The notes: generated by a model not told the origin, from the sequence alone. Counted from the first letter of the stretch, positions 35,770 through 64,000 are shown. The stretch: DNA of 64,000 nucleotides from Promethearchaeota archaeon (GCA_016840085.1 JAEOTA010000012.1:64001-128000); one strand, 5' to 3'. Numbers and translations are program-made.

Positions 35770-37164
35770 TCACACCTTCAATGTAGTGTTATCCCTTGCT
35801 AAACCTAAAAAATAATTCCGTACGCCTTCTTTCTTGGATTTTGACATACCGCATTTTCTCAATGATAAAGGGATTATCTGTTTTATAAACCGTTTGACCG
35901 TGTCGGGAGCGACTCCCAATACTTTTGTTGCTTTTTCTTGAGAATAGGAGTCAATTCCGATATATAAAATAAAAGATAGTACAACCTTCTCTCGACGGGT
36001 AACACAAAGTAGGGCCATTCTTTTACAAACCCCCTTGATCAATTCATGAAGGATATCAGTGTTCTCTTTAATTTCTTTTATATATATGAATCGCTTTAAT
36101 AACTGAGTTATAGGGTCATAGACCATTAATATACACGCCTTCTTGGTTGTTAATCCTTGGTCTGTCTGTTTAATTCTTTTAAGCTTTTCTTTTCTACCAG
36201 CTAAGATAGGATTACCATACTTCTTTTCTCCTTTTATTGATAAATTGATCCCAAAATAGATTCTTAATCCCTTACTTCTGCCTGATTGATTTGTCGTGAC
36301 GCCAAGTCTATGTAAGTAATTTGTTAATTTTGCTTTGGTGATAGCTTTAAATCCTTTTTCCTTAAGATATATGTTTACTGCCTGTAATAATCCTTTTTGA
36401 GTAATCATTTTCTCTTCGCTTAAAATACATAACCTTTCTATGAATTTTCTTATGTTCACATCAGTTTTATCTCTTTCAATGAAGACCTCTAAATATTGAG
36501 AATCTCTCCCCGTCCAAGTAAGGAAATTTTTAAGACGGTATAAATATGTTTGTCGTGTTAACATTTTTAGTTTTTTAAAGCTCTTAGAATCAATCCAAGA
36601 TAAGACTCTTGATTTATTAAAATCTAAATCCCATTTAGAAAATTCTCCATATGATATTAGTGGCCTGTGATAACCAAATTTCCCTTTAACTTTTGAATGT
36701 TCCTCAAAAACATTACGAACATTTTGGAAAAATTTTAAAAAAGACTCTGAATCTTCCACTTCTCTCTTTTTGCCCACGATATATTTAGGGATAGCTATAT
36801 TTTTTCCCAGCCATTTAGCAAAGCTGTAAATCCTGGTTCTATAACTCTTTTGTGTCTTCTCACTTAGATTTTGAAATTCTATTGAGCTAAATCCTTTAAT
36901 CATATCATTTTCTGAAAAATCTATTCTCCAGTTGATACATCTCCCAAATTTAATTAAGGCTGATTTCCAAGTTGATCTTGATCGGTTGGAAGTAGTGATA
37001 TTTTGATCTAAAAAGGTATTTGTTTTCTTAAGATATAAAATCTTTGCCTTTTTGGAGTCTTCCTTATTGGTTTTCTTATTGAGAATTGCTTCTTCTTCCT
37101 TAATGAATTTAATATTTGATCTTTTATGATTTATTTTATTAATTCCCATTTTATCACCGTTCAT
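35770..37164 (-). CDS. Chimeric DNA-binding protein: two integrase core-binding-like domains, a primase-C-like wHTH and a TFB-like HTH
   Basis: LSEKTQKSYRTRIYSFAKWL and TRQTYLYRLKNFLTW; IRKFIERLC...GLRIYFGINL; ILYIG...SQEKATKVLGVAPDTVKR. Confidence 0.5.
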   Translation of the reverse strand: MNGDKMGINKINHKRSNIKFIKEEEAILNKKTNKEDSKKAKILYLKKTNTFLDQNITTSNRSRSTWKSALIKFGRCINWRIDFSENDMIKGFSSIEFQNLSEKTQKSYRTRIYSFAKWLGKNIAIPKYIVGKKREVEDSESFLKFFQNVRNVFEEHSKVKGKFGYHRPLISYGEFSKWDLDFNKSRVLSWIDSKSFKKLKMLTRQTYLYRLKNFLTWTGRDSQYLEVFIERDKTDVNIRKFIERLCILSEEKMITQKGLLQAVNIYLKEKGFKAITKAKLTNYLHRLGVTTNQSGRSKGLRIYFGINLSIKGEKKYGNPILAGRKEKLKRIKQTDQGLTTKKACILMVYDPITQLLKRFIYIKEIKENTDILHELIKGVCKRMALLCVTRREKVVLSFILYIGIDSYSQEKATKVLGVAPDTVKRFIKQIIPLSLRKCGMSKSKKEGVRNYFLGLARDNTTLKV

Positions 37165-40688: not shown

Positions 40689-41592
40689 ACCCCAACTTAT
40701 TTAATAATTCAATATTGGATTTTTAGTAGCTGAGGTATGAGGATGAAAGGATCCAATATTTAGTTTTTGATCTTAGATCTTTAATAGAGTTTTAGACCAT
40801 TTTTAGACTTTAATGTAAAAAATATTACACAATGATATCCTTTTTGACGTGTTTTTGCGTTTTCCTGGCACAAGGCTATAATATAATTCCAACTTTAATA
40901 TTTATTTTTTTAAGAGTAGATTTCGGGATGATTATCCTTGTGAAAAACTTAATAATCCTGAAAAGCTATTTCAGAAAATTAAAGAAATAAATAATTGGTT
41001 TAACTAGCAAGATTAATCCATTAGACTTTTTAAGATACTATAAAATAATCTTTAATTGGTTTAGCGACAACAGACCTCCTAATAATAAGCTATCATACTA
41101 AATCATCTCAACTTATAATAGGGAATGGAATATTTAATGATAGTAAAGTACGTATACCTAAGTTAATTCTCAGAGATCGGTTATTCAATTGGGTCAAAAG
41201 AATCAGTTTTAAATTAAAAGAAGTGCTGGCTTCTTTATATTCAATAATATAGAAATCATCGTAGAATACCTTTTTAAAGAAAAGAATATAAAAAAAGTAG
41301 CAATAATAGAATGGGATTGACACCATGGCACCTTTATTTAAAAAATATGAAGGTTTTTTCCAATTAATTGAATTCTTATGAAATTTCTGTTGAGCAAAAA
41401 TTAGATAATCTTATCGATAACCTTAGAAAGGAAAAGAACTCTTCAAAAATGATAGAAGTTAATGAGAAAGCAACCACAATGATTATAAATATATTCCTGT
41501 CTCACATAATTTTTTATTTATAGATTCTATCATGGTGTTGTATACAACTTCACTTTCATGTAATAGTTCCTCATCTACGTTATTGATTGTAT

Positions 41593-42504
41593 CTATCTTA
41601 TTGATTGTTTAAAAATAGGTTTTAAAACATTAACATAATGGTCTCTTATAGAATATTCAGCGATATTAGTAGCTTCAGAAATAATCCATTGAGCTAAGAC
41701 AGGCTTCTGAAAATATTTTTTAGCCAATAGTTTGTCTGCTAAATAAATTATCCCCCCTGTTAAAATAAAGGGATTTCTACCTCCACGCTGTTTCATAGGT
41801 AACTTTTTTAATATTTCACGACACTGTATAGTCAACTTATTTTGAAATTCTCCTTTTGACCAAAGTACATTTTTCTTTTTTAATCTCTCTTCCAAATCTT
41901 TATGATTTATGACTTGATTAATTAATCTCATGAGATAATCTTCACTTTTATGAGGGAAATTCTCATCTTTAATATGATGTTTATATTCTATTCCATCTCT
42001 TAAGATTAATCTCGGATTAACTCGATGACCATAGTTTTGAAAAGCCTCAGAGATCTCCTTTATTGTAATAGGTGCATTATGATATTCTTTCCTCGCAGCA
42101 TAAAATATACAAAACCCTATTAATGAGATATTATTTACAACCTTAACCTCATTTTTGATTATTTTCCTGTAATAATACGCTGCGTTGTTTCTAATATTTT
42201 TATTGAGATTTAGATATGACGAAATTTTATTTAAAATATTAAAAATTCTGTATTCTGTTTCATGATTTTTAAGCCTTAATAATAGGTCATAATTTTTTTT
42301 TAATCTTCTAAATAATTTTTGTTCATTCGGACGTAAAAGTCTACCGGTTTTATCTTTTAAAAACTTAGTATTTCCATAATCTATATATGAACCTAATCCT
42401 CCAATAAAATCAGTACGCTCCCCTAAAGCTATATATTGTTTGCTTAAATTTCTTTCATTATTCTTATTATTTTCAGTATAAACAAAAGATGATTCTTTAT
42501 AAAA
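41593..42504 (-). pseudogene. 5'-truncated TFB-like paralog (zinc ribbon and start codon missing)
   Basis: The frame of ORF 41593..41931 stays open to 42504 (303 codons). It includes LKDKTGRLLRPNEQKLFRRLKK, cyclin repeat 1 (ISSYLNL...AAYYYRKI...ITIKEIS) and repeat 2 (GRNPFILTGGIIYLA...ISEATNIAEYSIRD). In-frame stop at 42505-42507. Confidence 0.85.
42296..42345. repeat. 50-bp direct repeat, copy 2 (inside the TFB-like gene)
   Basis: ttttttaatcttctaaataatttttgttcattcggacgtaaaagtctacc. Confidence 0.9.
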
Positions 42505-49516: not shown

Positions 49517-51697
49517 TCATTTTCTTGTTGCGCTCTCCCAATCATTCCAAAATCTTTCTAATTTTTGAAGCCCGAATTTACTAATAAAGGAGATTTCATC
49601 AAAAACCTCAACTAACGAGGCTTTTGAATATCTCTCTATCTTTGCCATCATCTCAAAAAATTGTTTATAAATGTTGAGATAGCGCCAAAAAGTTTGCTTG
49701 TCCAATTTTTCATGTTTAGTAAGTTTTTGTATAGCTTTACAATCATAAAGGTTTTCTCCTTTTAATGCGTCCCAATCATCCGTATCAGGATTATATTGAA
49801 AGAGAGTATCAATATCACCAGAGGAGTTGATTTCAGCTACTTGAATGACTTTTCTCTTGCTGGTGTTGGAATCTTTTTTCATCAAAACAATTAAGTCTAA
49901 ATCATTAAAGCATGAAGAATCAATCTTAAAATGGTGTAAAAAGCGATTAATCAGAGATTCGATATTATTACAGTGAATTGTTTGGAATCCTCTTAATCCT
50001 GCTGAAAGACAATGAAACATGGCTTTAGCTTCTTCTTCAGTTAAAATTTCTCCAAGATAAATTATATCAGGAGATCGATGTAATAATTTCTTTATTAGAT
50101 TACTTTTTGAATATTTTATATCTACATCATCGTCTAGTGAATCTACTTTATATTTTAATTGATGTTTGTCTAAATCGTCTTGGTTTGACGATTCGATAGC
50201 ATTTTCTATGTATATTTTTCTAAATTCTTTAGGCGCTATTAAATCCAATGCATTAATTAAAGTCGTTTTCCCAGTATCAGTCTCACCCGTCACAGTAATA
50301 TTATTTCTTTTTAAGATGTTAAAATAGAGAAAAGAGGCAATGAGGGGATTCAAAGTGTTATTCTGAACTAAATCTTGAATAGTAAAAATATTTTTATTAA
50401 GTTTTCTTATATCTAAAGAAAATCCCGATGCATGAATAGGAGCTATATCTACCGCGATTCTGCAAAAGAAAAGGTTATTCTTCATAACAAATTTAATGCT
50501 TGGATTAGAATAGTCTAACCGTTGCCCGCTATAAAAACGGCAAAAAGTTTTTAATCTTTCAATCTCGTTCTCATTAAATCTGATATCTGTACGACACCTA
50601 CCATGTATACGATGATTAATATAGACATATGATATATCAGAATCTAAAAAAATCTCTTCTATGAAGTCATCAATCAAGAAAGGAAATAATTTTGCAAGGT
50701 CTATAGCATCAAAAGTAGCTAATAAACTTATCCTCTCTTTCTCGTCATCAGAGACATGATACTTTCCGCTAATATAATCAATTCCTTCATTTTTATATTT
50801 TTGAATAAGTTCTTCAAAGGTTATTAAACCCTCAATCTTAAATGAATCGATAAGATGATTCTTGACGTCTTTTGCAATTTTTTTAAAGAACTGTTCTTCG
50901 CCTTTAGTCTGAAAAGTGAGATTAACTTCATATAACTTCTCAAATGCATGCGTATCATAAATTCGGATCTTAAATAATTGATGTTCCCCTATTAAATAAT
51001 TATCAATTAATCCAAATCTTTCTTTTGAATGAAGATCCTTTTTTGTCTTCTTTTGTGATTGACTAGAAATATTTTGAGTTGAAAATAACTCTCTATGAAA
51101 TCGTAAATAAGAAGGATATTGATTATGTTTTTTACAGAAGGTTATATATTCATTAATAATTCTTTGTTCTTTTAAGACTCTTAGAAAAGTCGTAAATTTA
51201 GCCTTTAATTCTTTTTGACATGTAAAACAAGCAGCATTATTTACTTCTTTACTCTTTATCAGTTTGTATCTCATTTGAATAAGCTCGAAGAGTCCAATTG
51301 GATCATGAAAATCGATCTTGGCAGGACGTACACCTGAATAAAAATCAGAAAACAGAACACATCCCATATCGTTTTTAATACATCCTTTACTGAAATCGAA
51401 ATCTATGAGCTCAAAAGAATCTTTAATCTGTTTAGTCTTTTTGAAATATTCCAAGAATAACTCAATACTATCTTTCGTTATTGTAAACTTCTCAGTTCCC
51501 AACGATAAAGATTCAAATTTTTTTCCTTTAATCTTATGTAATATCGCTAAGAAACATTGGATACATTTTGTATTTTTTAATATTACCCCTGTATATTTTG
51601 GACAATTCTTACAATCAACTATAACCAATCGTTCTTTTTTACCTTGAAAATTCTCTCTTTCTTGAAATATGACTAAATCTGATGTTTTAAGGGTCAT
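49517..51697 (-). CDS. TadA/CpaF/VirB11-family secretion ATPase with Cys-rich N-terminal extension
   Basis: Walker A GETDTGKTT, Asp box IENAIE, Walker B PDIIYLGEI, His box FQTIH, IEEIFLD, DIRK. Confidence 0.9.
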   Translation of the reverse strand: MTLKTSDLVIFQERENFQGKKERLVIVDCKNCPKYTGVILKNTKCIQCFLAILHKIKGKKFESLSLGTEKFTITKDSIELFLEYFKKTKQIKDSFELIDFDFSKGCIKNDMGCVLFSDFYSGVRPAKIDFHDPIGLFELIQMRYKLIKSKEVNNAACFTCQKELKAKFTTFLRVLKEQRIINEYITFCKKHNQYPSYLRFHRELFSTQNISSQSQKKTKKDLHSKERFGLIDNYLIGEHQLFKIRIYDTHAFEKLYEVNLTFQTKGEEQFFKKIAKDVKNHLIDSFKIEGLITFEELIQKYKNEGIDYISGKYHVSDDEKERISLLATFDAIDLAKLFPFLIDDFIEEIFLDSDISYVYINHRIHGRCRTDIRFNENEIERLKTFCRFYSGQRLDYSNPSIKFVMKNNLFFCRIAVDIAPIHASGFSLDIRKLNKNIFTIQDLVQNNTLNPLIASFLYFNILKRNNITVTGETDTGKTTLINALDLIAPKEFRKIYIENAIESSNQDDLDKHQLKYKVDSLDDDVDIKYSKSNLIKKLLHRSPDIIYLGEILTEEEAKAMFHCLSAGLRGFQTIHCNNIESLINRFLHHFKIDSSCFNDLDLIVLMKKDSNTSKRKVIQVAEINSSGDIDTLFQYNPDTDDWDALKGENLYDCKAIQKLTKHEKLDKQTFWRYLNIYKQFFEMMAKIERYSKASLVEVFDEISFISKFGLQKLERFWNDWESATRK

Positions 51698-51699
51698 TG

Positions 51700-51963
51700 T
51701 TATCTATCTCCATACATATAATCATATTCTCTTTTTACGGTAGGATCTTTTTCTATAGCAGACTCCATTTTAATCCTCTGAAGCATTTTGGGAGCATCAG
51801 CTAGAGATTCTAAGATATAAGTCTGTTTTTCTATTTCTGAAAATTTCATCTTATAACCACATTTGATACATTTAATTTTTTCAATCCTTTTTAGAACATA
51901 GCGCCAAGTTTTACACTTTGGACATTGGAAAAAAAATGCAGGTGTTTTAAACATTATTTTCAC
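51700..51963 (-). CDS. Zinc-ribbon protein (DUF1922-like)
   Basis: FQCPKC...KCIKCG. Confidence 0.7.
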   Translation of the reverse strand: MKIMFKTPAFFFQCPKCKTWRYVLKRIEKIKCIKCGYKMKFSEIEKQTYILESLADAPKMLQRIKMESAIEKDPTVKREYDYMYGDR

Positions 51964-51972
51964 ACCCCATAA

Positions 51973-53091
51973 CTAAAATAGATCTATTATATTTTGTTTT
52001 ATAAAATATTCATAATTAAAGATTCTAACATTTGGCAACTCCATCAATTTCTTTCTGTTTATTATTTTGGAATATTCTTTATCATTAATAACTAAAATTA
52101 CTATGTTATATTTCGGATAAAGTTGATCAAAGACTCTTGTAAGTAGTTTATAATCAACTGTGTCAAATATTAGAAACATAAACTTATCATTAATTAAAAA
52201 TGATCTATTACTTAATCTACGATAAGAAAGTCCATCTAAGATGAGCAATTTCTCAATTTCAGCATTTATTTTTGTAAAATCTCTTTTTTCTTTACTAAGA
52301 GGGTTTGAATAAAACATTTGCTCTATATCTGTATAGGTAAGATAATTATTGGAAATATCTAACCGCCATAAGATTTTATAACAATCATTAAGCGCTAAAG
52401 CAAACGAATCTACTAAGCCACATTCAAAAAAACTATTAATCTCATATTCAAGGTTATATTCATCCCTGATATTATTTTTTTGATCGACAAAATATCCCGA
52501 AATAACCATTTGAGAATCCTTTATCATACAATTAAAAATTAAAAAACCTTGGCGTTTAAACCGTTTAATCAAATTTGTAAACTCATAAAGAAAATTTACT
52601 TTTTTTTCTAATTCATATAGATCCAACGCATAAATATCCAATATATTTAAAAATCGCTCATTCTCTATGATAAATGAGTTTGTTGATTTTAACCTATGAA
52701 TTTTGGAATTAAGATTTGTAAAACCTATTTCAAGAAAATGAAGTTCTAATTTTTTCCCATCTAGGAATATGGCAGGAATTTGCGATTCCTCAACAAACTT
52801 GGTCTTTAGGACGTTGAGAACGGCTAAAATATTTTTTTTTTCGGCGTCCATAAAACATAGAACGATATATGATTCAATCTTATTGGTTATAGATATTTGA
52901 ACTGAGAAATAATGGAGCTTCTCTTTTTGTACTAAATGTTTCAGTATAGGAAGAGCTGTATGATAATTAAAGGCCTTTATGATTGAAAAGGCAATAATCT
53001 TATTAGATCTGTTAAGACTTGTATAACAAATTAAATTATCTTCAATTTCAAATGTTCCAAGTTTATAACATCCTTTTTTTATGTATGCCAC
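51973..53091 (-). CDS. Hypothetical 372-aa soluble protein in the ATPase cluster
   Basis: Long ORF, 9 nt from the next gene; no recognised motif. Confidence 0.7.
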   Translation of the reverse strand: MAYIKKGCYKLGTFEIEDNLICYTSLNRSNKIIAFSIIKAFNYHTALPILKHLVQKEKLHYFSVQISITNKIESYIVLCFMDAEKKNILAVLNVLKTKFVEESQIPAIFLDGKKLELHFLEIGFTNLNSKIHRLKSTNSFIIENERFLNILDIYALDLYELEKKVNFLYEFTNLIKRFKRQGFLIFNCMIKDSQMVISGYFVDQKNNIRDEYNLEYEINSFFECGLVDSFALALNDCYKILWRLDISNNYLTYTDIEQMFYSNPLSKEKRDFTKINAEIEKLLILDGLSYRRLSNRSFLINDKFMFLIFDTVDYKLLTRVFDQLYPKYNIVILVINDKEYSKIINRKKLMELPNVRIFNYEYFIKQNIIDLF

Positions 53092-53134
53092 AATTTAGAG
53101 TGTCTCATTTAATAATTTTAAACTCCATGGAAAT

Positions 53135-53428
53135 TTACGCATAAAAACACAAGATAAATAACATGATTGCCAAATATATACCTACAAAAATATAAATAAA
53201 TCTAGCAAAACCGAACAAAAGTTGAAAAAACAAGAGGTTTTCTATACCTAAGAAAAGTAATGATTTATATAACGTGTTCAATAAAACTAAGAGAGGAATT
53301 AGAACAATAAGATAAAGTCCGAAAGAAAAAAACATAATTAATTGATCTGTTGCGATTACATTATACGCAAAGAGAAGTATATAAAAACCAAGTATTATTA
53401 ATATTTCAAGTATTAATATTTCGAGCAA
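53135..53428 (-). CDS. Small three-TM hydrophobic protein
   Basis: 97 aa, almost entirely hydrophobic. Confidence 0.65.
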   Translation of the reverse strand: MLEILILEILIILGFYILLFAYNVIATDQLIMFFSFGLYLIVLIPLLVLLNTLYKSLLFLGIENLLFFQLLFGFARFIYIFVGIYLAIMLFILCFYA

Positions 53429-54176
53429 TTTTATCCAACTTATTCATAATTTTTGAGGTAATTTGAAAAATAGTTTGAGCAGATCTATTTTGTTCGGCAA
53501 ATCGATATTGTTGTGCTAGATAAGAAGAATACTGTATCGCTTCCTCATAGAAGGCAAATTCAAGTTCCCTTTCTTCTATTTCAAACAATAAATCGTTAAC
53601 ATCGAAATATTTGATCCCTAAAAACTCCGCTAATCGTAAGAAAAGATAATTGATAAGGGTATTACAGCCCTCTATTACGGCAGAAGAATATCCAATTCGA
53701 TAATGATTCTCTAATTCTTGGAAACGGTGTGTTAATTTATCCAATTCAAGATTCGGCTTTGTCGGAGTATATTCTAGACTTCTACTATTCGGTGTGCGCT
53801 TTTGATATCGTAAAGAATTAGACTGATAGCTAGAAGTAGATGGTAATTGCCTATTATTCTGGATGGGTGACATTTCTCTTCTCTGATGTCTACCCCCTAT
53901 ATTAAGATTTTCGACATTTTCGATATTTTTAATATTAATATTATAATTTTCAGGACGATATTGTTTTCTTTTTTGGCGTTTCGCCTTACGTTTGCGATAT
54001 GATTTTATTGCTTTTTTTATGCTTTTTTTGATATCTTTCTTTTTTCTTTTTACAATTGGTTTAAAAATGTGCTTATACCAAGGTGCAAACTTATATTCTT
54101 TCCAATCATTAAACTTTTCTTTTTTTTCTCGTAATTTCTCAGACATGCTTTTTTTTTCATATTCCATACTATTCAC
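53406..54176 (-). CDS. Hypothetical protein with basic N-terminus and helical (HEPN-like?) C-terminal domain
   Basis: K/R-rich first 75 aa; YRIGYSSAVIEGCNTLI helical bundle with no RxxxxH motif. Confidence 0.6.
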   Translation of the reverse strand: MNSMEYEKKSMSEKLREKKEKFNDWKEYKFAPWYKHIFKPIVKRKKKDIKKSIKKAIKSYRKRKAKRQKRKQYRPENYNINIKNIENVENLNIGGRHQRREMSPIQNNRQLPSTSSYQSNSLRYQKRTPNSRSLEYTPTKPNLELDKLTHRFQELENHYRIGYSSAVIEGCNTLINYLFLRLAEFLGIKYFDVNDLLFEIEERELEFAFYEEAIQYSSYLAQQYRFAEQNRSAQTIFQITSKIMNKLDKIARNINT

Positions 54177-54177
54177 C

Positions 54178-54552
54178 TTATAATATTACATCGAATTGGT
54201 CATTAAAGCGTTTAAAAAACAATTCTAAACCAAGTTTGGTATTTTCCAAATCTTTATCTCTTTTTCTGACTAAAACCGTCTCAATTAACGTCAAAATTAG
54301 GTCAAAATCCCTAAGAGTTAAAACAGAATTCGTGTAATTCATATCATTTCCCTCAGTTAAATTATATTGTTCATATAATTTATCTATTATTCTTAAAATA
54401 TCCTTGTTTAATCTCGTTTGCACTTTATCGTCAAATGTATACCAGAATTCGTGATAGAGCTTCTCCACAGAAATAATAAGATTTTCAATATTGGAAATTT
54501 TGAATATTGAAAATGAGGCTTTTTTTTTTGTATCTTTATCATATAATTTCAT
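54178..54552 (-). CDS. Hypothetical protein
   Basis: Tight operon spacing. Confidence 0.65.
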   Translation of the reverse strand: MKLYDKDTKKKASFSIFKISNIENLIISVEKLYHEFWYTFDDKVQTRLNKDILRIIDKLYEQYNLTEGNDMNYTNSVLTLRDFDLILTLIETVLVRKRDKDLENTKLGLELFFKRFNDQFDVIL

Positions 54553-54559
54553 TTATTTA

Positions 54560-54967
54560 CTATTCCCTCTCATTAGTTTTGTGTGATTCAGGAAAACAAT
54601 CAGATATATATTTTAGGGCGGTGTGAGACTCATATTCTTTATTAAGGATATCTTTCATTATCTTCATACATTTTGACGTAAAACTCTTCTTAGAGATCGA
54701 ACGCTTTAGAGACTTTATTTTCTTTTTTATTTCTTTTAGCTCAGACACATACATAATACCTGTCTTAAAGGGATTAATCTTTGAATCAAATGGAATCTCG
54801 TATCTAAGAACATCTGATATTTTCTCTATTAAACTTGGTATCTTTTCACCTTGTTTTTCTCTAATCTTTTGGTTATTGCGATAAATCTCCATTAGAGTTT
54901 TCAAAAGATTCTGAAAAGGTTTTATTTCGAATATAACCCATTTAATTTCACATTTTCTCATCATCAT
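54560..54967 (-). CDS. Hypothetical protein
   Basis: Overlaps the stop of the upstream ORF (ATGA). Confidence 0.6.
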   Translation of the reverse strand: MMMRKCEIKWVIFEIKPFQNLLKTLMEIYRNNQKIREKQGEKIPSLIEKISDVLRYEIPFDSKINPFKTGIMYVSELKEIKKKIKSLKRSISKKSFTSKCMKIMKDILNKEYESHTALKYISDCFPESHKTNERE

Positions 54968-55659
54968 CGCTCTTGTTGTCTATAATAAATATCTTCAATA
55001 TTTTTATGTCGCCCGTATTTTTTGTTGAGCATCTCTCTTACCAGTTCATCATCGCTCTTCATAAGTAATTCTTTATTTGTTATTTTCTTCTTTAATTGCT
55101 TAATCTCTTTTTTAATATCTTTTAAATCAGAGGATTTTGCAGACCTACCTCTTTTACCTCGCCTTCCTCTCTTTCCTCTTTTACCCCTTTTAGGTTTGTC
55201 CCTTTTTCTTTTATCTTTTTTTCGTTCTATATCTTTTTTATCATCTGTATCTTCCTTATCATCTCTTTTTTTTCCATCATCTTTATCTTCCCTTCGTTTT
55301 CTATCAAGCTCTTCGCCTTTAATATCTCTTTCTGAAGGAGTATCTTCTATTTGCTTATGCTCCTTTTCTCCCAAATATTCATTATAGTTCTTATCCTCTT
55401 GGATATTTTCTAAATCTGTATCAGATAATGATTCTCTTTCTTCCAAAGGCTCATATGTATTATCATTTTCGAAGAATTTCATAGATTCTTCCTCTGAAAG
55501 TGGTTCATACTTATCGGACTCTTTATCAGAATCATTATCAAATAGACTCTCGTCTGTTTCATCGAAATCCTTATCATCCTCATTATCGAAAAGATCTTCT
55601 GAATCTTCTTCAAAAAAGTCATCCGTATTATCATCATAATCTTCTTCAAAATCAGCCAT
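54964..55659 (-). CDS. Disordered protein with acidic N-terminal half and basic KRG-repeat C-terminal half
   Basis: D/E-rich first 110 aa; KRGKRGKRGRRGKRGR. Confidence 0.72.
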   Translation of the reverse strand: MADFEEDYDDNTDDFFEEDSEDLFDNEDDKDFDETDESLFDNDSDKESDKYEPLSEEESMKFFENDNTYEPLEERESLSDTDLENIQEDKNYNEYLGEKEHKQIEDTPSERDIKGEELDRKRREDKDDGKKRDDKEDTDDKKDIERKKDKRKRDKPKRGKRGKRGRRGKRGRSAKSSDLKDIKKEIKQLKKKITNKELLMKSDDELVREMLNKKYGRHKNIEDIYYRQQER

Positions 55660-55730
55660 TTTAATATACCCTTATAATTCTTTATCTACTTTTGTTGTTT
55701 TGAAATAATCTTAAATACACCTTGAAATTT

Positions 55731-58355
55731 TCAATCTGTTTTAGCAAAAAAATTATCATAAGATAATTCCTTTCTTTTTTTACGTTTGTAAACAAAATCT
55801 TCAGTTTTGAAAAGATACGAATATGAACCGTCTTTTGCCATACAAATCCGTTTATCTAAACGAGAAATTAATTCTTGTTCTTTTAAATCATTAGTGAAAT
55901 TCTGAGTGCTTGCAATAGACTGCTGAAATAAGAAGAACAAACAAGGAATATTGATTACAGATTCGTATAACCCCACGCTTGTTTGATCAGCTAATATATG
56001 CCCCACTCCTTTCGAGCGAAACTCACGAATTAACTGTGAAAAAATCTTCCTGAAAGAATCCATTGCAATATAATCATCATCTTCAGGATTAACATTTTTA
56101 GGCTCTTCTGTTAATTGATGTGCTTCATCTAATACTATAATTTGTTTTAGAGTGTCCTGTTCTTTATCTGGAATAAGGGCCCTAAACATTTGTAATATTA
56201 ATGTTGCTAACAATCGCTTTTCAGTAGGTTTGCATCCTGCTAAATTAATCATTACTTTTCTTCCGTTATATACAACGTCCTCAAACCATTTAGGTATTTT
56301 ATCTTCTGTTCTTAATGCATAGTTTATCAAAGGAGTTGAGAAAAGTTGAGTATATCTATGTTTTATTGCTTGCACTAATCTCATCTGAAGCCGTGTATCA
56401 TAAGGATTTTTATCTAAATACCGTAAAAGCTCACTAAAAAGATGTTTGATATGCTTTGGTACTTTGAAATAAGTGTTATAATATAATAACAGTGTATTGT
56501 ATATTGCATCAACAACAACATTCTTTAAACCAAGTGAATAAACAAGGCATTCTGATATTTCAAATAGACAACGGAGAAAATTATCGTTAAAAACAGCATA
56601 CGGAATGTGAAGTCTCTCGTCTCCCCAATCTAAGCAATAATCTGAAGGATATAATTCAGATTGTTTTCCTTTAGCAAGATTAATTATCAATATACCTACA
56701 TTTAGATTATATTTAATGAAATGATTCAATATAACACCTATTAAATATGTTTTTCCAGTATCAGGTTTACCGATCATTAGAACGGAACGTCTTAATGACT
56801 CAGTTGAGATTGTTGCTTTTTTCTCAGAAACGATTCCGTCCATGATATGGTTTCCAATGATAATTTCAGAAGGATCTCCTTTTGGTATTTTCTTAAGGTC
56901 AAAACTCTGAAGTTCATAAATAAACTTTTTAGGTATAGGTAATTCTTTAGCAAGATCAAAATCGAGTAAATAAGAAGTGATATACTGCCCAAAGTAAAAG
57001 TTTAATGTATAGATATCGATAAATACACCTTTTCTTACTCGCTTTAGTTTTGCGGGTCGTTTATCATTTCTTCCTGCAATTGCCAAACTTTCTAATATGC
57101 CTTCGATCATATTTTTTCGATTTTTTTCCAGGGGAACATTTTTGAAACTAACAAAAATTTTTACTTTTTGCAACTCATCTTGCCACATTCGTGAAAAATT
57201 CATACGTTCTTCCTTATCGCGATATTCAAGAAAGTTGGCTTTTTCTCTTATTCGGATAATCTTTTTCTTTCGTCCTTTTTTCCATAATATATATAGATTT
57301 ATATCTTCAGAAGTAGTTCTGAAGGCATTAATAAAACTCTGTATAATTTTAATCTTTTCTATATATGGTGGTCTCGGAAGCTTAATTTCATAAAAATAAT
57401 CATGATTTACTGAGAATAATTCGTTCCGAGTCATGGGAATTATATTTATTTCTGCATCCAATCCACGATATTTGACCTGTAATTCTGCTTTAAGGGTCTG
57501 TCCTCTTTTAATTGCTAATTTTTCTGAATGTGAATTAAAAAAAAATGAAAACTTGAAATCGTTATGGCATTTAACTTCAATCCCATACACACTGTTATTT
57601 CCCAATAAATCCTTTATCCAACTCTCATAATAATCATATTGATATTTTTTATTGTCTGATTCATGTTCTAAGGCTACTTGAGTAATTGTGATTTTGCTTT
57701 GCCAAAATAAGATCTTTTTAAGATGTGAGTTAGAACTTGCTCCTTTCAAGAAACACAATTGAATACTGTGAAAATACGAATATAATAATCTGTAAACTGG
57801 TTCATAAAAAAACAGAGTTAAAAAAGATTGAAGAATAATTGAATAAATAACAACTTCAATAAAGCCTTGAATAGTGGCAAAATAAAATAAAAACGACAGC
57901 GAAATAACACCACTTAGAAATTTGATGATAAATTCTATTTCTGGTGTAAATACTATTAGAAAAATAATAGTGAGTATTAAAATAGTAATAGAACTGTAAA
58001 AGAAATCCCCATTTATAGTTAAAACTATGATATGACAAAAAAAGGCGATAATTAAAGGATATACCCTTGCTAAATCGACTCTTTTATTACTATTATTTAA
58101 GAAATAAAGAGCTATACAAAATGTAAATATTAGAGCCCTTTCACATTCAAAGATCGTTATAAATGTTGGATCATCATAATTCATAATATGAATGCGTATT
58201 ATTGAAAACAGAATTACGAAAAGAAAGAGTATAAACAAAAGAAAAATGCGACTCCTCCCTTTTTCTACTAGAAATGAATGGATAAAACTAACGATTAGAA
58301 TAATTATAAGAAGGATAGCAATAGAATCAAATAAAGTAAATATCATATCATACAC
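55731..58355 (-). CDS. Membrane-anchored HerA/VirB4/VirD4 (FtsK-HerA superfamily) ATPase
   Basis: About 6-7 N-terminal TM segments; Walker A GKPDTGKT; Walker B IIVLDEAH; REFRSKGVGHILADQ. Confidence 0.87.
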   Translation of the reverse strand: MYDMIFTLFDSIAILLIIILIVSFIHSFLVEKGRSRIFLLFILFLFVILFSIIRIHIMNYDDPTFITIFECERALIFTFCIALYFLNNSNKRVDLARVYPLIIAFFCHIIVLTINGDFFYSSITILILTIIFLIVFTPEIEFIIKFLSGVISLSFLFYFATIQGFIEVVIYSIILQSFLTLFFYEPVYRLLYSYFHSIQLCFLKGASSNSHLKKILFWQSKITITQVALEHESDNKKYQYDYYESWIKDLLGNNSVYGIEVKCHNDFKFSFFFNSHSEKLAIKRGQTLKAELQVKYRGLDAEINIIPMTRNELFSVNHDYFYEIKLPRPPYIEKIKIIQSFINAFRTTSEDINLYILWKKGRKKKIIRIREKANFLEYRDKEERMNFSRMWQDELQKVKIFVSFKNVPLEKNRKNMIEGILESLAIAGRNDKRPAKLKRVRKGVFIDIYTLNFYFGQYITSYLLDFDLAKELPIPKKFIYELQSFDLKKIPKGDPSEIIIGNHIMDGIVSEKKATISTESLRRSVLMIGKPDTGKTYLIGVILNHFIKYNLNVGILIINLAKGKQSELYPSDYCLDWGDERLHIPYAVFNDNFLRCLFEISECLVYSLGLKNVVVDAIYNTLLLYYNTYFKVPKHIKHLFSELLRYLDKNPYDTRLQMRLVQAIKHRYTQLFSTPLINYALRTEDKIPKWFEDVVYNGRKVMINLAGCKPTEKRLLATLILQMFRALIPDKEQDTLKQIIVLDEAHQLTEEPKNVNPEDDDYIAMDSFRKIFSQLIREFRSKGVGHILADQTSVGLYESVINIPCLFFLFQQSIASTQNFTNDLKEQELISRLDKRICMAKDGSYSYLFKTEDFVYKRKKRKELSYDNFFAKTD

Positions 58356-58666
58356 TTATCAGGTCCTTATATACTTATTGTCGACATGTAATTATAAAAA
58401 CCAATTGAATTTAATAAAAACCTATAACCGAATATTAATCTCTTTTGATATGATTTCTATTGTTTGCTAATACATTTCATACAATTCACTGTAAGATTTT
58501 TTTTAGCTTTTAATAATTTTCCTTAACGCGAAGTGAATCAAGGAAAATGGGAGTGAAGAATTTGCGGATATACTACTCATCTAATAATCATATGTTTAGC
58601 ATACTGAGAGATAAATAATAATCAATTTAAATGGGAGTTTTTATAATTTTTTTTGGATATTAAGAT

Positions 58667-59095
58667 ATGTCAAACATGTTTATAGGCACTGAATTAGCTT
58701 TTGTTGATATTCTCATTTTGCTTCTTATAACCGTTTTGGATTTTCTCTTTTATTATTATAAAAAGAGATCTAAAGAAGTGAAAATATTGAAATATTCAAT
58801 TCCTACAATTTTGATTGGATTGGTGATACTTTTAGCGGTTAAAGACACGGTTCAGGATTACTTTTTCCTTATATCAATTGGCATGCTTTCTATATTTTAT
58901 ATTTATGTTCTGCAAGCAAATTATAAGCCTTTTAAGAGAAAATCAAAGGGAATAAAATATAATATAACCTCTGAATCAGAACATGATTTTGATTTTAAAA
59001 CTGAGATTGAGCAAGAGGATATTGAAGTTTCTAAAAGCGACTCAGATGAGTTTGATCAATTAATTGAACGAATATACGATAGAGATACCAAATAG
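58667..59095 (+). CDS. Three-TM protein with acidic tail
   Basis: Three hydrophobic segments; D/E-rich C-terminus. Confidence 0.65.
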   Translation: MSNMFIGTELAFVDILILLLITVLDFLFYYYKKRSKEVKILKYSIPTILIGLVILLAVKDTVQDYFFLISIGMLSIFYIYVLQANYKPFKRKSKGIKYNITSESEHDFDFKTEIEQEDIEVSKSDSDEFDQLIERIYDRDTK

Positions 59096-59116
59096 GAAAA
59101 ATAAACCTTTTTCTGC

Positions 59117-59722
59117 TTAAAGCATTTTAAATTTTAGACCATTCATAATTGTGAACGGTAGCGTAAATCCGCATATAATTGATCCTATCAGTCCTATGAT
59201 TATAAAATTGAAAGGCTTCCATTTTGTATGTAAAATCCTTTCATTATAAATAAGCAGAAAGACACCATATGCAAGAAGAAAAAAGCATAATAATGAAATA
59301 AATCCTAAAAAATAAAGAAAGAACTTATCAATTAATAAAACCTCTACCTCTCCCTCTTTAATTTGTGCGTAAAAAAGATCCAAATCCGAACTGAATATAT
59401 ACTTATATATAAATGGAGCAGGAAGAGATGTCGTGAGTGAATCTAGAAGCATAATTAAGATATTAGTTAGGAATAACACCCCAATAACCACACATCCGAT
59501 CATTCCCCCCCTCCCATACTTTTTCGAAGAAGATAAAGCATATGAATGGATCTTTTCATTATTTTCTTTCAGTTTTGAACCTTTATATAACGAATAAAAT
59601 AAAAAGAGAAACCATGCAAAAAAGATGTAATTTCCCAAGAAAAAGACAATTGAAAATAATTGATTAAAGAAATTAAAAACATCATCAAACCATTCGGACA
59701 TATTAGGAAGAACATCTGTCAT
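59117..59722 (-). CDS. Four-TM membrane protein
   Basis: Four hydrophobic segments; 22 nt downstream of the pilin-like ORF. Confidence 0.7.
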   Translation of the reverse strand: MTDVLPNMSEWFDDVFNFFNQLFSIVFFLGNYIFFAWFLFLFYSLYKGSKLKENNEKIHSYALSSSKKYGRGGMIGCVVIGVLFLTNILIMLLDSLTTSLPAPFIYKYIFSSDLDLFYAQIKEGEVEVLLIDKFFLYFLGFISLLCFFLLAYGVFLLIYNERILHTKWKPFNFIIIGLIGSIICGFTLPFTIMNGLKFKML

Positions 59723-59744
59723 TTTTTAAAATCACATCATCAAA

Positions 59745-59909
59745 TCAAAAAAACGGCAGTAAACACGCCCCTTCCCCTAAGAAAAATTCACTCAAATTGA
59801 ACATTTCACCAGTAAGAATATCAATTAAGTCTGTAACAATTTTAACTATCAAAAAGAAAACGAAAATCGCGAATGCTATTAACAATCCTTTTTCGATCAA
59901 ACTACCCAA
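59745..59909 (-). CDS. Unannotated 54-aa Flp/type IV pilin-like protein
   Basis: TTG start; MGSLIEKGLLIAFAIFVFFLIVKIVTDLIDILTGEMFNLSEFFLGEGACLLPFF*; lies directly downstream of the GspF/TadBC gene. Confidence 0.6.
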   Translation of the reverse strand: MGSLIEKGLLIAFAIFVFFLIVKIVTDLIDILTGEMFNLSEFFLGEGACLLPFF

Positions 59910-59975
59910 TTAAATCAACTTTTTTCCTATATTCATCATAATTGTGAACATAAAATAATTTAAACCAAACCAATT

Positions 59976-61502
59976 TCAAATCAATTCAATCCCAAGAACA
60001 CTAAAGAAGGAAAGAAAGAATGCTAACGCAAACACAATATCACTGAGAATAAGAATTATATAATATGACTTGTATTTTGTAATTTTGAGAAAATAAAAAC
60101 ATGTAATCGAATTGCATGCAAAAAATGTAAGAAACATAACGATTGCATTAATAATATTTGTCATAGAGCGATAGTCAGGAATAGTCATATTAGCAAAATT
60201 TCTTAGATTAAATGTGAATATTGCAAAAAAAGGCAACATTCCGCATATAGCCCCCGTTATCACGGGTAAGAGCAAGATGAAAGCAAGTACTTTGAACCTT
60301 TGAGATCGTATTTCCCCTTCAAACTTATCTTCTAACTTTCGATGTTTATCAATCAAACTTAAAATCTCAAAGATCTTTTCGGAAGATAAATACGCACTTT
60401 CTTCAACCATGATCTTTATCGTATCCAGGATTAAAATATATCTTAAATTCTTCAGGATAAATTTTAAGGAATCTATCATTTCATTGAACGAGCAAGTAAG
60501 TTTTCCCAACTGTATAGCATGATTACCAACAGTATGTTCTAATAGCTGAAATTGAGACTTTTTTTCAGAATAATAATTGATGAACGCTCTTTCAGGAGAG
60601 ATATTGTTGTTTAGCCGAATTGCAAATCCTTCTAAAAATTTTAAAAACTGTTCGAATGTTCTTTTTTCCATTTTTGTTCCTTCTAATATCCCTATAAAGA
60701 AAATATTAATCTTTACAAGTCTACGGCAGAGATATCTAAGTAAGAATAAAAAAATTGGTACAATTACAATTACAAGAAATAAGGGAATTTGCATCATTAA
60801 TACAAAAAAGATTACGCCAATAGGGAAAAATATACCCACAAAAAACACCACCGATAGTTTTCCCTCTAGCCCTTTCAGATAAGTTTTAAATTGCTTTTCT
60901 AATTCATAATCTCTTACACTTTCTTGAATACTAGATGTTTTAAAATGACTAGTAATTAATTTCTGCAAATATAAATTAAAATCGGATGAAGGGGTTAATA
61001 CTTTTTCCAATTCTTTTTCAGGACTTTTCCCCCGCTGCACCTTATCTAAAATTTCTTTGAATAATCCTGAGAACACCAAATCTAACCCACTCATCAACTT
61101 AATAAAGCTTAAACATAAATCCGATCTTGGAGTAAGGACTTTTTGCAAGAGTGAGAAATTAATTTTTATGAAATATATTGAAGCGTTAATCGACACCTCA
61201 TCTTTATTGATTCTTTTGTAAAGATATAGATTGAAATTATACGCCACTATTACTGCAATACAGAGAGAACAGACACTATTAATCAAAATATCATTTCCTA
61301 ACAATAGAAAAGAGATTAATATTGAACCGATAAGCGAGATTATGAAAATAATGGTTGTTGCTTTATCGATTGCCGATTTACTAACTCCATATTCTCGATA
61401 CAGTTTTCTATAAACATCATTGATATCTTTAAAACTAATTTTGGGAATCTGGTATCTCTCGAATCTATTACAAAATCTTACAAAATCTTGAATATCAGTC
61501 AA
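59976..61502 (-). CDS. GspF/TadB-TadC/ArlJ-like membrane platform protein (two domains)
   Basis: Two cytoplasmic domains (ILDKVQRGKSPEKEL; LNNNISPERAF), each followed by TM bundles. Confidence 0.75.
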   Translation of the reverse strand: MTDIQDFVRFCNRFERYQIPKISFKDINDVYRKLYREYGVSKSAIDKATTIIFIISLIGSILISFLLLGNDILINSVCSLCIAVIVAYNFNLYLYKRINKDEVSINASIYFIKINFSLLQKVLTPRSDLCLSFIKLMSGLDLVFSGLFKEILDKVQRGKSPEKELEKVLTPSSDFNLYLQKLITSHFKTSSIQESVRDYELEKQFKTYLKGLEGKLSVVFFVGIFFPIGVIFFVLMMQIPLFLVIVIVPIFLFLLRYLCRRLVKINIFFIGILEGTKMEKRTFEQFLKFLEGFAIRLNNNISPERAFINYYSEKKSQFQLLEHTVGNHAIQLGKLTCSFNEMIDSLKFILKNLRYILILDTIKIMVEESAYLSSEKIFEILSLIDKHRKLEDKFEGEIRSQRFKVLAFILLLPVITGAICGMLPFFAIFTFNLRNFANMTIPDYRSMTNIINAIVMFLTFFACNSITCFYFLKITKYKSYYIILILSDIVFALAFFLSFFSVLGIELI

Positions 61503-61564
61503 ATAAATTCCTATTAATATTTTTATATACTTTCATAAAAATATGTTAAAAATTCCCCCATTTT

Positions 61565-61855
61565 TTATGATGTTTTAGCTTTGAAATCCTTTTTTAAACG
61601 CTCATATTGTTCAATTCCCGCTAGGGCACCTTGTAATAAATGATAGATTTCATTCATACGCATAAACTCAGTAAAATAGGGGCAGAAATTCTGACCTTGC
61701 AACCCCTTCTTCTCAAATTTAGTGGAAAACACCAGTTTATATAATCTTCTTTTATCATGTTTGTAGGGGTAAAGATTAAGCGAATTTCGAGGCAAATCTA
61801 ACATTTTTTCGATAAGGGAAATCTTATTTAAAAGCATTTGTTTAGTATATTTCAT
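61565..61855 (-). CDS. Hypothetical protein
   Basis: 96-aa ORF, co-oriented with the cluster. Confidence 0.55.
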   Translation of the reverse strand: MKYTKQMLLNKISLIEKMLDLPRNSLNLYPYKHDKRRLYKLVFSTKFEKKGLQGQNFCPYFTEFMRMNEIYHLLQGALAGIEQYERLKKDFKAKTS

Positions 61856-61971
61856 TTTTTTTTATCTTCTTTTTATTTCATCTATCTTATCATCTTAAAA
61901 AAGACATAAAAATCCAACCTCTTTTTATCATTTTTAGAGAGGTTTTTAAGTTGAATGTAGAATGATAATAT

Positions 61972-62313
61972 ATGATAGAAGGCAAAAATTTACTTGAATT
62001 AATTCTTACATATGATCACTTTTTATCCCCTATTCAATACAAAATATTAGAGGTGTTATGGGAGCATGAAGATCTCACACGAGCGGATTTAGTTAAACTT
62101 TTAAATACACCAAGAACAACCGTTTATGATAATCTTGTTAAACTTGAGAAAATGGGCTTTATTAAAAACTTTACAAGAGATACAGGTATAAAAGGACGAC
62201 CCAAAGTCTATTGGGCTCTTAATTATATAACCCTTCTAAAAAAATTATCAGAAATTAAAAAAGAATCAAAAATAAAAAGGCGACTAAAGAGTGGACAATC
62301 TTTACGAAATTGA
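61972..62313 (+). CDS. TrmB-like winged-HTH regulator
   Basis: LTRADLVKLLNTPRTTVYDNLVKLEKMGFI...GRPKVYW. Confidence 0.85.
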   Translation: MIEGKNLLELILTYDHFLSPIQYKILEVLWEHEDLTRADLVKLLNTPRTTVYDNLVKLEKMGFIKNFTRDTGIKGRPKVYWALNYITLLKKLSEIKKESKIKRRLKSGQSLRN

Positions 62314-62797
62314 TTTAGAACAGTTCTGTATTAATAAGCACGCGTTTTATGAGAAAATAGTTGAAATTATATCAAGAAACTATGGATGGGTTAATTTTAA
62401 AAAAGCCGTATTTGACTCGGAAGTGGAAAGGGATTATGCGTTATTTGAACTTGAGCAGGAGTTTGGAGTTGCAGGTAAAGAGATAAAAGAATTTCAAAAT
62501 GATGCAAAGGTGCTTTATGAGACATTTCGAGAGCTAATTTTTCCCGATAAAGAATTATCTGTAAAAGAGCAAAAAAAATTAAAAGACCTGTTATTAGAAA
62601 TAATTTTATTAGATGAATCAGAAATATATTATCTTGTAGGAATTTCAACCACTTCAATTCTTAAAAAACAGCGAAGAGAAACCTTTAAGGAGCTTGAAAA
62701 TATTTCAAAGCTAAAAAATCCATATATAAAACAAAAACTCAAAAAAGTATACAAAATTGATAACAAGATAAATAAAATATTTCTAAAGAAAGTATAA
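62291..62797 (+). CDS. Hypothetical protein
   Basis: 168-aa ORF overlapping the end of the wHTH gene. Confidence 0.6.
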   Translation: MDNLYEIDLEQFCINKHAFYEKIVEIISRNYGWVNFKKAVFDSEVERDYALFELEQEFGVAGKEIKEFQNDAKVLYETFRELIFPDKELSVKEQKKLKDLLLEIILLDESEIYYLVGISTTSILKKQRRETFKELENISKLKNPYIKQKLKKVYKIDNKINKIFLKKV

Positions 62798-62799
62798 AA

Positions 62800-63102
62800 T
62801 CAATCCTCTTTTTTCTGTATATCGACAGCAATCATTTGCCCCTCTTTTAAATTGAACAATTCTACGATCTCTTTCTTCACAGTAATACCTCTAGAGGTTT
62901 GACCCGCTTTCACAACTGTGCTGGGCATAGGTATTACAGGATCTAATTCCTTCATTTTGTTCCCTTCTTCAAATATTCCATAAATAAATATTTTTAGTGT
63001 ATCCCCAGAATTAATATTTAAACTTTCTCTAACAGTAGGAGAAATCAAAAACCTGAGTGATTTCCCTTTTGGGTTTTTTAATGATACTATATCTTTCATC
63101 AT
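62800..63102 (-). CDS. Tandem AbrB/MazE-like DNA-binding protein
   Basis: GKSLRFLISPTVRESLNINSGD and GQTSRGITVKKEIVELFNLKEGQ. Confidence 0.75.
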   Translation of the reverse strand: MMKDIVSLKNPKGKSLRFLISPTVRESLNINSGDTLKIFIYGIFEEGNKMKELDPVIPMPSTVVKAGQTSRGITVKKEIVELFNLKEGQMIAVDIQKKED

Positions 63103-63116
63103 ACCAATTTTTTTGT

Positions 63117-63136
63117 TTGTTACATATTGTTACATA
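63117..63136. promoter_or_regulatory. Perfect 10-bp tandem repeat (ttgttacata x2), candidate operator
   Basis: Lies 14 nt upstream of the AbrB-like gene start. Confidence 0.45.
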
Positions 63137-63239
63137 ATTATTTTACGATACTTATAAAGATAATCCCCTTATTTCTCAAGCACACTCCGACAAAGCCCGA
63201 CTCTATCTTGCGAATACCAGATAAAGAATGACAAAAAGC

Positions 63240-63470
63240 TCAAAATATTTATATATGTATTCTTATATTTATAATAATAAATAAAAGATTTCTATTATCG
63301 ATCTTTCCATATAAAACTCTATAAAGGTTATTAAATTGGAAAATATATACCATCCATCCAATCTGTCAGCATCTCATCTGTCGGCATCTTCCAGAGGCAA
63401 AAACTTCCTTGTTTTTCGGGAGTTAGAAGATTACAATATGGGGGGACGCCCATTCCCCCCATATTACGAA
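63240..63470. other. Candidate replication origin upstream of orc1/cdc6
   Basis: AT-rich tract, 14-bp direct repeat (63361-63374 and 63376-63389), ORB-like ttccagaggcaaaa at about 63389, and a perfect 12-bp G/C-run inverted repeat at 63435-63465. Confidence 0.5.
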
Positions 63471-63529
63471 TCGATAATTAAGAAAATCTTTTTTTTAATA
63501 ATTTAATAAATTTATAAGGAGAGTCAATT

Positions 63530-64000
63530 TTGGGAAAGGAACATAATAAAGGGTTGTTGTGTGGTAGGTTTTTTGACTCTGTATTGAGAAGAGACTCTTT
63601 AATTAAAGAAGAAAAATTTTTAAGTATTGATTATCCTACAAGAATATTACATCGAGACGACAAATTAAATGAATTAGCTCTTCTTTATTCGTCTATGATA
63701 ACTCATGCAGGGTCTAGAGGCATAAATCAGATTGTATTAGGCGAGCGAGGGATTGGAAAAACGGCAACAGTAAGATATTTCGGCACAGAGTTAGAGAATA
63801 CAGCTTTAAGAAAAGGTATTAACCTTAAATACCTTCATATTAATTGTCGAAAAGAACGAACAGAATATAAAGCCTTAGTGAAAATTAACAAGCTTATTAA
63901 TAATCAGATTGCTAGTCGGGGTTATTCCCCACAAGATTTATTAGATTTTATCTATGATCATCTTGAAAAGGAAAATATGTTTCTTTTATTAGTTCTAGAT
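63530..64000 (+). CDS. cdc6: Orc1/Cdc6 replication initiator (partial, runs off the window; absent from the ORF track)
   Basis: TTG start after AGGAG. Translation contains LSIDYPTRILHRD, Walker A GERGIGKT, HINCR, RGYS and ends in Walker B LLLVLD. Confidence 0.92.
   Translation, partial: MGKEHNKGLLCGRFFDSVLRRDSLIKEEKFLSIDYPTRILHRDDKLNELALLYSSMITHAGSRGINQIVLGERGIGKTATVRYFGTELENTALRKGINLKYLHINCRKERTEYKALVKINKLINNQIASRGYSPQDLLDFIYDHLEKENMFLLLVLD

Follow-up and report, generated by a model that had tools for sequence, protein, structure and literature searches.

The window analysed here is a 64,000-nucleotide stretch from a Promethearchaeota archaeon (GCA_016840085.1, JAEOTA010000012.1:64001-128000), equivalent to C69:64001-128000 of a 4.68-Mb bin (G000). 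Between positions 49,517 and 64,000 it holds a real, foreign and integrated gene cluster that joins a captured type IV filament locus of the Tad type to a VirB4-like motor. It is proposed, at somewhat less than even confidence, that this cluster, on an integrated element of Lokiarchaeia, encodes machinery that transfers DNA on contact between cells and works without a relaxase; that DNA is pumped is suggested by the predicted fold of the motor and by its context. At its entry the element displaced the 3′ half of a core gene, and it brought a foreign second set of the cdc6/TFB/Tad genes, among which the ATPase is embedded. TadA and TadBC would polymerize a short leaderless pilin for cell contact, and the pilin would be matured by removal of its first methionine, which would dispense with a prepilin peptidase. 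Fixed in the membrane by its seven transmembrane (TM) helices, the ATPase would pump DNA at the contact with the aid of a 4-TM and a 372-aa protein. Incoming DNA could then integrate by recombination with the host-gene copies that are carried, or after a cut by a homing-type nuclease, with no relaxase or integrase. Overall, this would be Ups plus Ced united in one mobile locus. The transfer reading is advanced because the target gene is split and its site is empty in nine relatives, the TadA is foreign, the cdc6 stands apart from that of the host and related islands occupy different sites. It also draws on the full-length VirB4 fold predicted for the ATPase, the apparent VirB4 N-terminal domain of the 372-aa protein, the single clade formed by the Tad-linked ATPases, the LAGLIDADG and HNH nucleases found beside the ATPase family elsewhere, and the precedent of the Ced/Ted systems.

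The left junction of the island lies within a core winged-helix (ArsR-like) gene of 297 aa (33935..34828, + strand), in which a divergent copy has taken the place of the 3′ part from ~34,293. Nine relatives are informative; in each, the same 293-aa gene comes next, directly in eight and after one small gene in the ninth. In this genome the 293-aa neighbour is on contig C4, behind a duplicate of the 3′ half of the 297-aa gene (C4:5850). Alignment to the closest relative gives the window gene an identity of 85-93% as far as ~34,292 and of 63-78% thereafter, while the fragment on C4 is 78-95% identical. The drop at ~34,292, together with the original-like 3′ half on C4, therefore indicates that the island replaced the end of the gene and displaced the original. 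The island spans the remaining 98.5 kb of C69, with a GC content of 27% as against 30%, and perhaps also takes in C4:1-5850. The right junction is on that other contig, and the start of C4 matches several other contig ends. Just inside this junction a giant protein with an acidic N-terminal part is encoded (C4:1-4188, L250), its start being repeated at several contig ends; LAGLIDADG-like and PD-(D/E)XK motifs were seen in it by eye only, and it has no Pfam match.

The same gene-end pattern is present at a second level. The 3′ part of a TFB-like gene (41588..42504, − strand) is the left copy of a 917-bp direct repeat, the right copy of which (C69:150180-151096) lies inside a full TFB-like gene. 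The two copies are 95.5% identical, keep the frame open, differ at 24 synonymous and 14 non-synonymous codons, and bracket 44.6 kb that hold the cluster. The junctions are gene-end duplications of 0.5-0.9 kb. A 52-bp TFB gene piece with an 8-bp tandem duplication (35389..35447, 98% identity to C69:150888-150939) is possibly the scar of a further insertion. Other islands are sited elsewhere, that of G074 near tRNA-Gly and that of G023 between the Smc and ValRS regions, and no long terminal repeats were found in them. A tRNA-integrated island can be ruled out here, as C69 carries no tRNA.

It is highly improbable that the island is an assembly or binning artefact in which a second copy was contributed by another organism. 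The bin is 7.6% contaminated and the right junction is on another contig, but the split gene has its two halves in one bin, alongside the neighbours expected. In three runs that may represent the source samples, Logan contigs cross the left junction and reach into the cluster, and the depth inside the island equals that outside. In a mangrove run the flank was better covered than the island, and missing cover of this kind is no evidence. Every open reading frame (ORF) claimed in an earlier sequence-only reading of the window is present at its position and strand, and orthologues of the cluster in a second assembly are 47-70% identical with zero stops.

The Tad half of the cluster (TadA, TadBC, the pilin, the 97-aa, 372-aa and 4-TM proteins, cdc6 and TFB) duplicates a neighbourhood belonging to the family core, a fact overlooked in the sequence-only reading. 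The window TadA, a VirB11-family assembly ATPase of 726 aa with N-terminal cysteine pairs (49517..51697, − strand), matches T2SSE (E 5e-17) and carries the Walker A motif GETDTGKTT; the FlaI, TadA and VirB11 models match it below their cut-offs. Records of its relatives are labelled mostly Promethearchaeota (Lokiarchaeia). The host's other TadA is on C81 and is 46% identical to the window copy. The TadBC/GspF-type platform (508 aa, ~7 TM; 59976..61502, − strand) gave a weak T2SSF match only (E 0.09) and is 39% identical to the core copy, whose place beside TadA is fixed in the core locus. In order, the C81 neighbourhood comprises cdc6, a winged-helix gene, a prepilin peptidase, a 99-aa TM gene, TadBC, a 140-aa pilin, TadA, ribosomal proteins L3/L4/L23, the 372-aa gene, TrmB, a Flp-like pilin and, farther along, the 4-TM gene. 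This type of gene order recurs across the family. TadA is present in 101 of 135 family genomes, nearly always as a single copy, the 4-TM gene in 106 of 131 and the 372-aa gene in 36 of 40; the core Tad locus has no large ATPase. The stretch G000:C81:8815-30769 (L062, L063) is thus an ordered Asgard type IV filament locus with cdc6, Tad, L3/L4/L23, a free VirB4 N-terminal-domain gene and a Flp-like pilin. Surveys of archaeal type IV filaments (T4F), a recent one among them, describe the Asgard T4F genes as scattered (PMC4858521, PMC13705601).

In a quick tree of TadA, the window copy and three other island copies form a clade (subtype A) that is sister to the core copy of another genus (SH-aLRT 94). 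The host's own TadA is placed with its genus, and another five island copies group by themselves (subtype B). On this phylogeny the window Tad copy is foreign and horizontally acquired, which, with the split target gene and the empty site in nine relatives, bears out the earlier suggestion of an integrated, horizontally acquired element. The notion that the cluster might be core synteny holds for the Tad half as a family trait; this copy is patchy, on an island and equipped with a foreign TadA.

The motor is a membrane-anchored ATPase of 874 aa (55731..58355, − strand) with ~7 N-terminal TM helices and a DUF87 match (E 5e-4). Its motifs are intact (Walker A at 529, Walker B at 740, EFRSKG at 778), and a VirB4-type middle domain (~215-460) precedes the ATPase domain (~495-860). 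The predicted model (pLDDT 72, the TM part being low) consists of ~7 TM helices, a duplicated alpha/beta domain and a RecA-type ATPase. When this model was searched with Foldseek, the nine best matches were full-length VirB4 proteins, TrwK/VirB4 being first (E 4e-16, ~800 columns), and on structure alignment TrwK alone matched over both domains of the protein (528-550 residues). The earlier assignment as a VirB4-type membrane ATPase is therefore supported by the predicted structure; a sequence-level match to the VirB4 family is absent. No NurA, Sir2 or DUF4297 partner adjoins the gene. In the HerA-NurA and HerA defence systems HerA is soluble, whereas the ATPase here possesses TM helices together with a middle domain of the VirB4 type. 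Members of the family are distributed patchily, in 64 of 161 class genomes and in as many as 7 copies, and the TM-fused form occurs in ~12 of 121 genomes. Two paralogues without TM helices lie elsewhere in this genome (G000:C60:74548-79826 and C35:92645-96487), one beside an HNH-repeat protein and one before a long acidic ORF. In four other genomes (G003:C2, G008:C47, G019:C1, G135:C12) a short ATPase and an upstream GIY-YIG-like acidic-tailed protein are always found beside a thermosome gene, at the edge of variable DNA.

The 372-aa protein (51973..53091, − strand), which had been considered an orphan, appears to have a known fold. Its model (pLDDT 86) aligns to TrwK/VirB4 over 250 residues (Z 16.9, rmsd 3.6), followed by EccE (Z 12.1), and Foldseek and the atlas agree on a VirB4 N-terminal domain; an atlas feature search was blank. 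As modelled, it corresponds to the N-terminal domain of VirB4 standing alone, to which a small C-terminal alpha/beta domain is added. Profile comparison of the ATPase and 372-aa families revealed no sequence-level link. The gene is present in every Tad locus examined in the family, core or island, save where contigs end (in G012 the core gene has an open frame of 392). The family-core four-TM protein (201 aa; 59117..59722, − strand) shows a weak likeness to VirB2/CedA1-type hairpins (atlas scores 0.80-0.85, with CedA1 at 0.80, to be taken as a lead only). Its family has no Pfam match and no meaningful match in the PDB; the sole sequence matches, GPCR helices, were taken as chance. Extra copies of the 4-TM gene sit beside membrane ATPases. 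A 2-TM HerA-type ATPase of ~595 aa is near-core (60/81) and often adjoins the 4-TM gene. In this genome such a HerA/CedB-like protein, a candidate domesticated DNA importer, is encoded at C83:1896-3668 and, in split form, at C9:14716-16469. Since each Tad locus has a free VirB4 N-terminal domain and the near-core 2-TM ATPase lies by the 4-TM gene, the host may own a scattered version of the same machine.

At least nine island Tad loci were found, seven of them among ~135 family genomes; this is a lower bound, as only some of the single-copy TadA genes were inspected. The TM-ATPase is embedded among the Tad genes in eight of the nine, in two different gene orders. These eight ATPases form one clade (support 99.9) with only ~27-30% identity between subtypes, and within subtype B the ATPase and TadA trees agree. 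The linkage between ATPase and Tad that had been predicted is accordingly lasting for one ATPase clade and does not extend to the family at large, nor to G141, where Tad occurs without the ATPase.

The ATPase gene is followed by that of an acidic partner of 231 aa (54964..55659, − strand), the N-terminus of which is 52% D+E in 60 aa. A co-oriented neighbour with at least 30% D+E in 60 aa at one terminus was found at 15 of 28 ATPase loci, as against 1.4% of the genes in this genome (the loci include kin and are not independent). Elsewhere the acidic partner often ends in, or precedes, LAGLIDADG or HNH nuclease domains. It is known that VirB4 also drives effector secretion. It is thus conceivable, although improbable, that the machine serves contact-dependent protein export, with the ATPase secreting acidic-leader proteins (nuclease effectors in most loci) and the pilus giving contact. 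The frequency of the acidic neighbour, the established role of VirB4 and the variety of domains behind the acidic part (LAGLIDADG with intein, HNH repeats or none) would fit such a function. However, these domains are homing-type site-specific nucleases and not typical toxins, no immunity genes were recognized, and in all five subtype-B Tad islands the acidic partner is absent, with a basic protein in its place. In three genomes (G012:C27:20516, G082:C75:142631, G133:C68:20724) acidic-leader proteins end in an intein-type Hint domain plus LAGLIDADG (by Pfam for G012 and G133) and adjoin ribonucleotide reductase or LeuRS genes, named by eye.

The pilin-like protein (54 aa; 59745..59909, − strand) begins with MGSLIE, directly 3′ of an in-frame stop, and the same holds for its orthologue. 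As the sequence-only reading had it, this is a tiny pilin-like ORF with a hydrophobic N-terminus and the Glu in place, but the class III leader (signal peptide) is absent. It is not a pseudogene, since its orthologue in the second assembly has the identical start, with ATG. The protein is homologous to the core Flp-like pilins; the core Flp-like pilin and the subtype-B pilins have the leader. Among leaderless homologues, a small residue at position 2 (T, G, P) goes with Glu at position 6, and E or K at position 2 with Glu at position 5. Aminopeptidases remove the first methionine when the second residue is small. The Glu pattern fits such a removal, by which Glu would come to lie at +5, and this route of maturation would explain the missing prepilin peptidase. 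As noted earlier, the peptidase is lacking from this island. The core prepilin peptidase gene (G000:C81:10309-10976) is frameshifted in the assembly, either as a true pseudogene or through an assembly error, and PF01478 has no match in the genome; the peptidase is present in one subtype-B island. The 140-aa core pilin-like proteins (G000:C81:13991-14413 and homologues) are also leaderless and show the same Glu-5/Glu-6 pattern.

An Orc1/Cdc6 paralogue of 418 aa (63530..64000, + strand) runs past the window end. It passes the TIGR02928 cut-off, is 44% identical to the host's core cdc6, and in a tree lies apart from it, within an island clade. The gene is in the backbone of most related islands; none was found in the G023 island. 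Where an orc1/cdc6 origin had been proposed, the cdc6 gene is real and no ORB-like repeats were found upstream; the ORB consensus is likewise missing beside core cdc6 genes. A perfect 12-bp G/C-rich inverted repeat (window:63435-63465) lies 65 nt upstream of cdc6. There is little likelihood that the island is a plasmid or mini-chromosome that can replicate itself from a cdc6 origin of its own and is now integrated. Large archaeal plasmids do use Orc1/Cdc6 and carry VirB11 and HerA clusters (PMC9674854), the window cdc6 belongs with those of the island backbones, and the 917-bp direct repeat could release a 44.6-kb circle. The lack of ORB-like repeats and the G023 island speak against it, as does the check for coverage steps, in which depth was equal inside and outside the island in all three runs; the self-replicating element of the sequence-only reading is not borne out.

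The transfer reading has to be weighed against a considerable body of evidence. No PF00589 tyrosine integrase is present on C69 (serine recombinases were not searched by name), Pfam matched no relaxase among the island ORFs scanned, no coupling protein (VirD4) was recognized in the C69 part of the island and no VirB6/CedA was clearly recognized in the island. The first two absences are as anticipated earlier, and archaeal elements are generally without recognizable relaxases (PMC9905601). The ATPase core alone ties DndH, HerA, VirB4 and TrwB (Z 22-28), so that VirB4 is not separable, the acidic partner in the window has no nuclease, and the depth of island and flank is equal. The two Tad subtypes derive from different core lineages, and the single Tad-linked ATPase clade joins two long branches and may be an artefact. 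No Tad is nearby in 20 of the 28 family ATPases examined, and the island of G141 has the backbone and Tad with no TM-ATPase. In two island carriers the core Tad is damaged: in G023 (C29:52184-56500, L177), which carries a subtype-B island, TadA, the pilin, TadBC and the TM gene are cleanly lost from the core locus, and in G074 the core TadA is split. Such damage points to an island pilus that performs the ordinary task of the host.

Several of these observations would suit a reading that we consider rather unlikely, namely that the host-type cdc6/Tad set, captured by the island out of another lineage, does a normal host job, such as adhesion or partner contact, and that the ATPase and its acidic partner are a separate selfish cassette which landed among the Tad genes. 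The core status of the Tad set (TadA 101/135; 372-aa gene 36/40), the decay of the core Tad where an island copy exists, the patchy and mostly Tad-free ATPase family, the other captured host genes on the islands and the G141 island would all be expected under it. Against this, the Tad-linked ATPases are one clade that is still embedded despite rearrangements, the ATPase and TadA trees agree within subtype B, and the Tad locus itself appears to encode a VirB4 N-terminal domain.

The cluster is a tight, mostly minus-strand run, as described from the sequence: eight minus-strand genes extend from 58355 to 49517 with gaps of -23 to +71 nt, followed by one plus-strand and three more minus-strand genes. 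Beyond the components above, it encodes an 87-aa protein with weak zinc-ribbon matches (51700..51963, − strand) and no counterpart in other islands; a three-TM protein of 97 aa (53135..53428, − strand), whose homologue adjoins TadBC in the core locus; and a basic 256-aa protein (53406..54176, − strand) with a helical C-terminal domain, HEPN-like by eye only, without a Pfam match and with homologues in 3 related loci. Two small proteins of 124 and 135 aa (54178..54967, − strand) have no assigned role, and a second three-TM protein has 142 aa (58667..59095, + strand). The stretch 61565..63102 holds a 96-aa gene (−), a TrmB-type HTH gene (+; E 2e-8), a 168-aa island-backbone gene (+) and an AbrB-like gene (−; E 2e-4). 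These two flanking regulators had been expected; no RHH gene was identified within the cluster coordinates. Nearer the left junction, a 464-aa protein (35770..37164, − strand) has an integrase-type N-terminal SAM-like domain (PF13495, E 3e-8) and homologues in two related islands, and no catalytic domain was found in it. Short repeats at window:41043-41495 are common to C22, C42, C85 and the end of C69 and are probably insertion sequence ends or miniature inverted-repeat transposable elements. Farther along the island (G000:C69:150185-173635; L159, L160) host roadblock/small-GTPase genes recur as copies that reach 83% nucleotide identity to C81:857-2945. This part also carries a second cdc6 paralogue, a TFB paralogue that is intact, and a helicase-phosphoribosyltransferase block with a nearly identical counterpart in G012. 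One of the island's close relatives (L085/L089/L191, GCA_024239015) is deposited as Patescibacteria and is probably a mis-binned Asgard contig.

Judged by the features that define each of them, the cluster falls outside conjugative type IV secretion systems (T4SS), Ced and canonical T4F, and is most plausibly likened to Ups plus Ced on a mobile element. Ced and Ted are relaxase-free VirB4 systems of Crenarchaea that work with type IV pili (PMC9905601). They share with the cluster a VirB4-like membrane ATPase, small membrane proteins, contact by type IV pili (Ups) and the lack of a recognized relaxase. They are, however, conserved, non-mobile systems domesticated in the chromosome; their CedA is VirB6-like, their pilin is VirB2-like, and Ups has a locus of its own. 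In the present cluster the two halves are interleaved on a patchy island with a foreign TadA, CedA is not recognized and a free VirB4 N-terminal-domain protein appears to be present. The VirB4/TrwK of R388 conjugation resembles the predicted two-domain ATPase fold and that of the 372-aa protein. Unlike the R388 T4SS, ~7 TM helices are fused in front, VirB6/8/9/10, a coupling protein and a relaxase are not recognized, and the pilus genes are those of a type IV filament. Archaeal T4F (PMC4858521, PMC13705601) have the VirB11-type ATPase, pilin-like N-termini and, probably, the TadC-type platform in common with the cluster, which differs in its leaderless pilin and in the island's lack of a peptidase; text searches of these surveys found no mention of a VirB4-linked subsystem. 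Haloarchaeal fusexin elements (PMC9259645) and Methanoperedens plasmids (PMC9674854) are likewise large and patchy with VirB4/HerA-type ATPases, and the plasmids also share Orc1/Cdc6 and a VirB11 cluster. The former differ in their XerC/D integrases and VirD4 and the latter in being circular replicons, and gene-end replacement as an integration route is described for neither. The named integrative and conjugative element and plasmid of Atabeyarchaeia (PMC11529989) are, like the island, mobile elements of Asgard archaea, of the integrated kind; they are small (11-21 kb), the plasmid has a tyrosine integrase, and the text names no HerA, VirB, FtsK or Cdc6. No published description of the island type or of the ATPase module was found, most subscription papers being outside the search.

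A broader reading, possible but doubtful, is that Lokiarchaeia own a hybrid of type IV filament and VirB4 pump, scattered and domesticated in the host and carried in compact form by integrase-free, gene-end-replacing islands that move large DNA blocks between genera. The scattered parts would be the Tad locus, the stand-alone VirB4 N-terminal domain, the 4-TM protein and the 2-TM CedB-like ATPase, and the blocks moved would include cdc6, TFB and small-GTPase/roadblock genes. A sister family in the same order has complete genomes (G032, G038) that hold TadA, TadBC and pilins, and parts of the core half are therefore open to study in culture. In vitro tests are feasible both for the leaderless pilins and for the free VirB4 N-terminal domain. 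Asgard genomes show much transfer and duplication, and this locus names a concrete candidate machine for the exchange of DNA. Gene-end replacement is likewise a candidate route by which replication, transcription and GTPase paralogues may cross between genera. If the broader reading is true, the hybrid would be a first candidate mating system for Asgard archaea.

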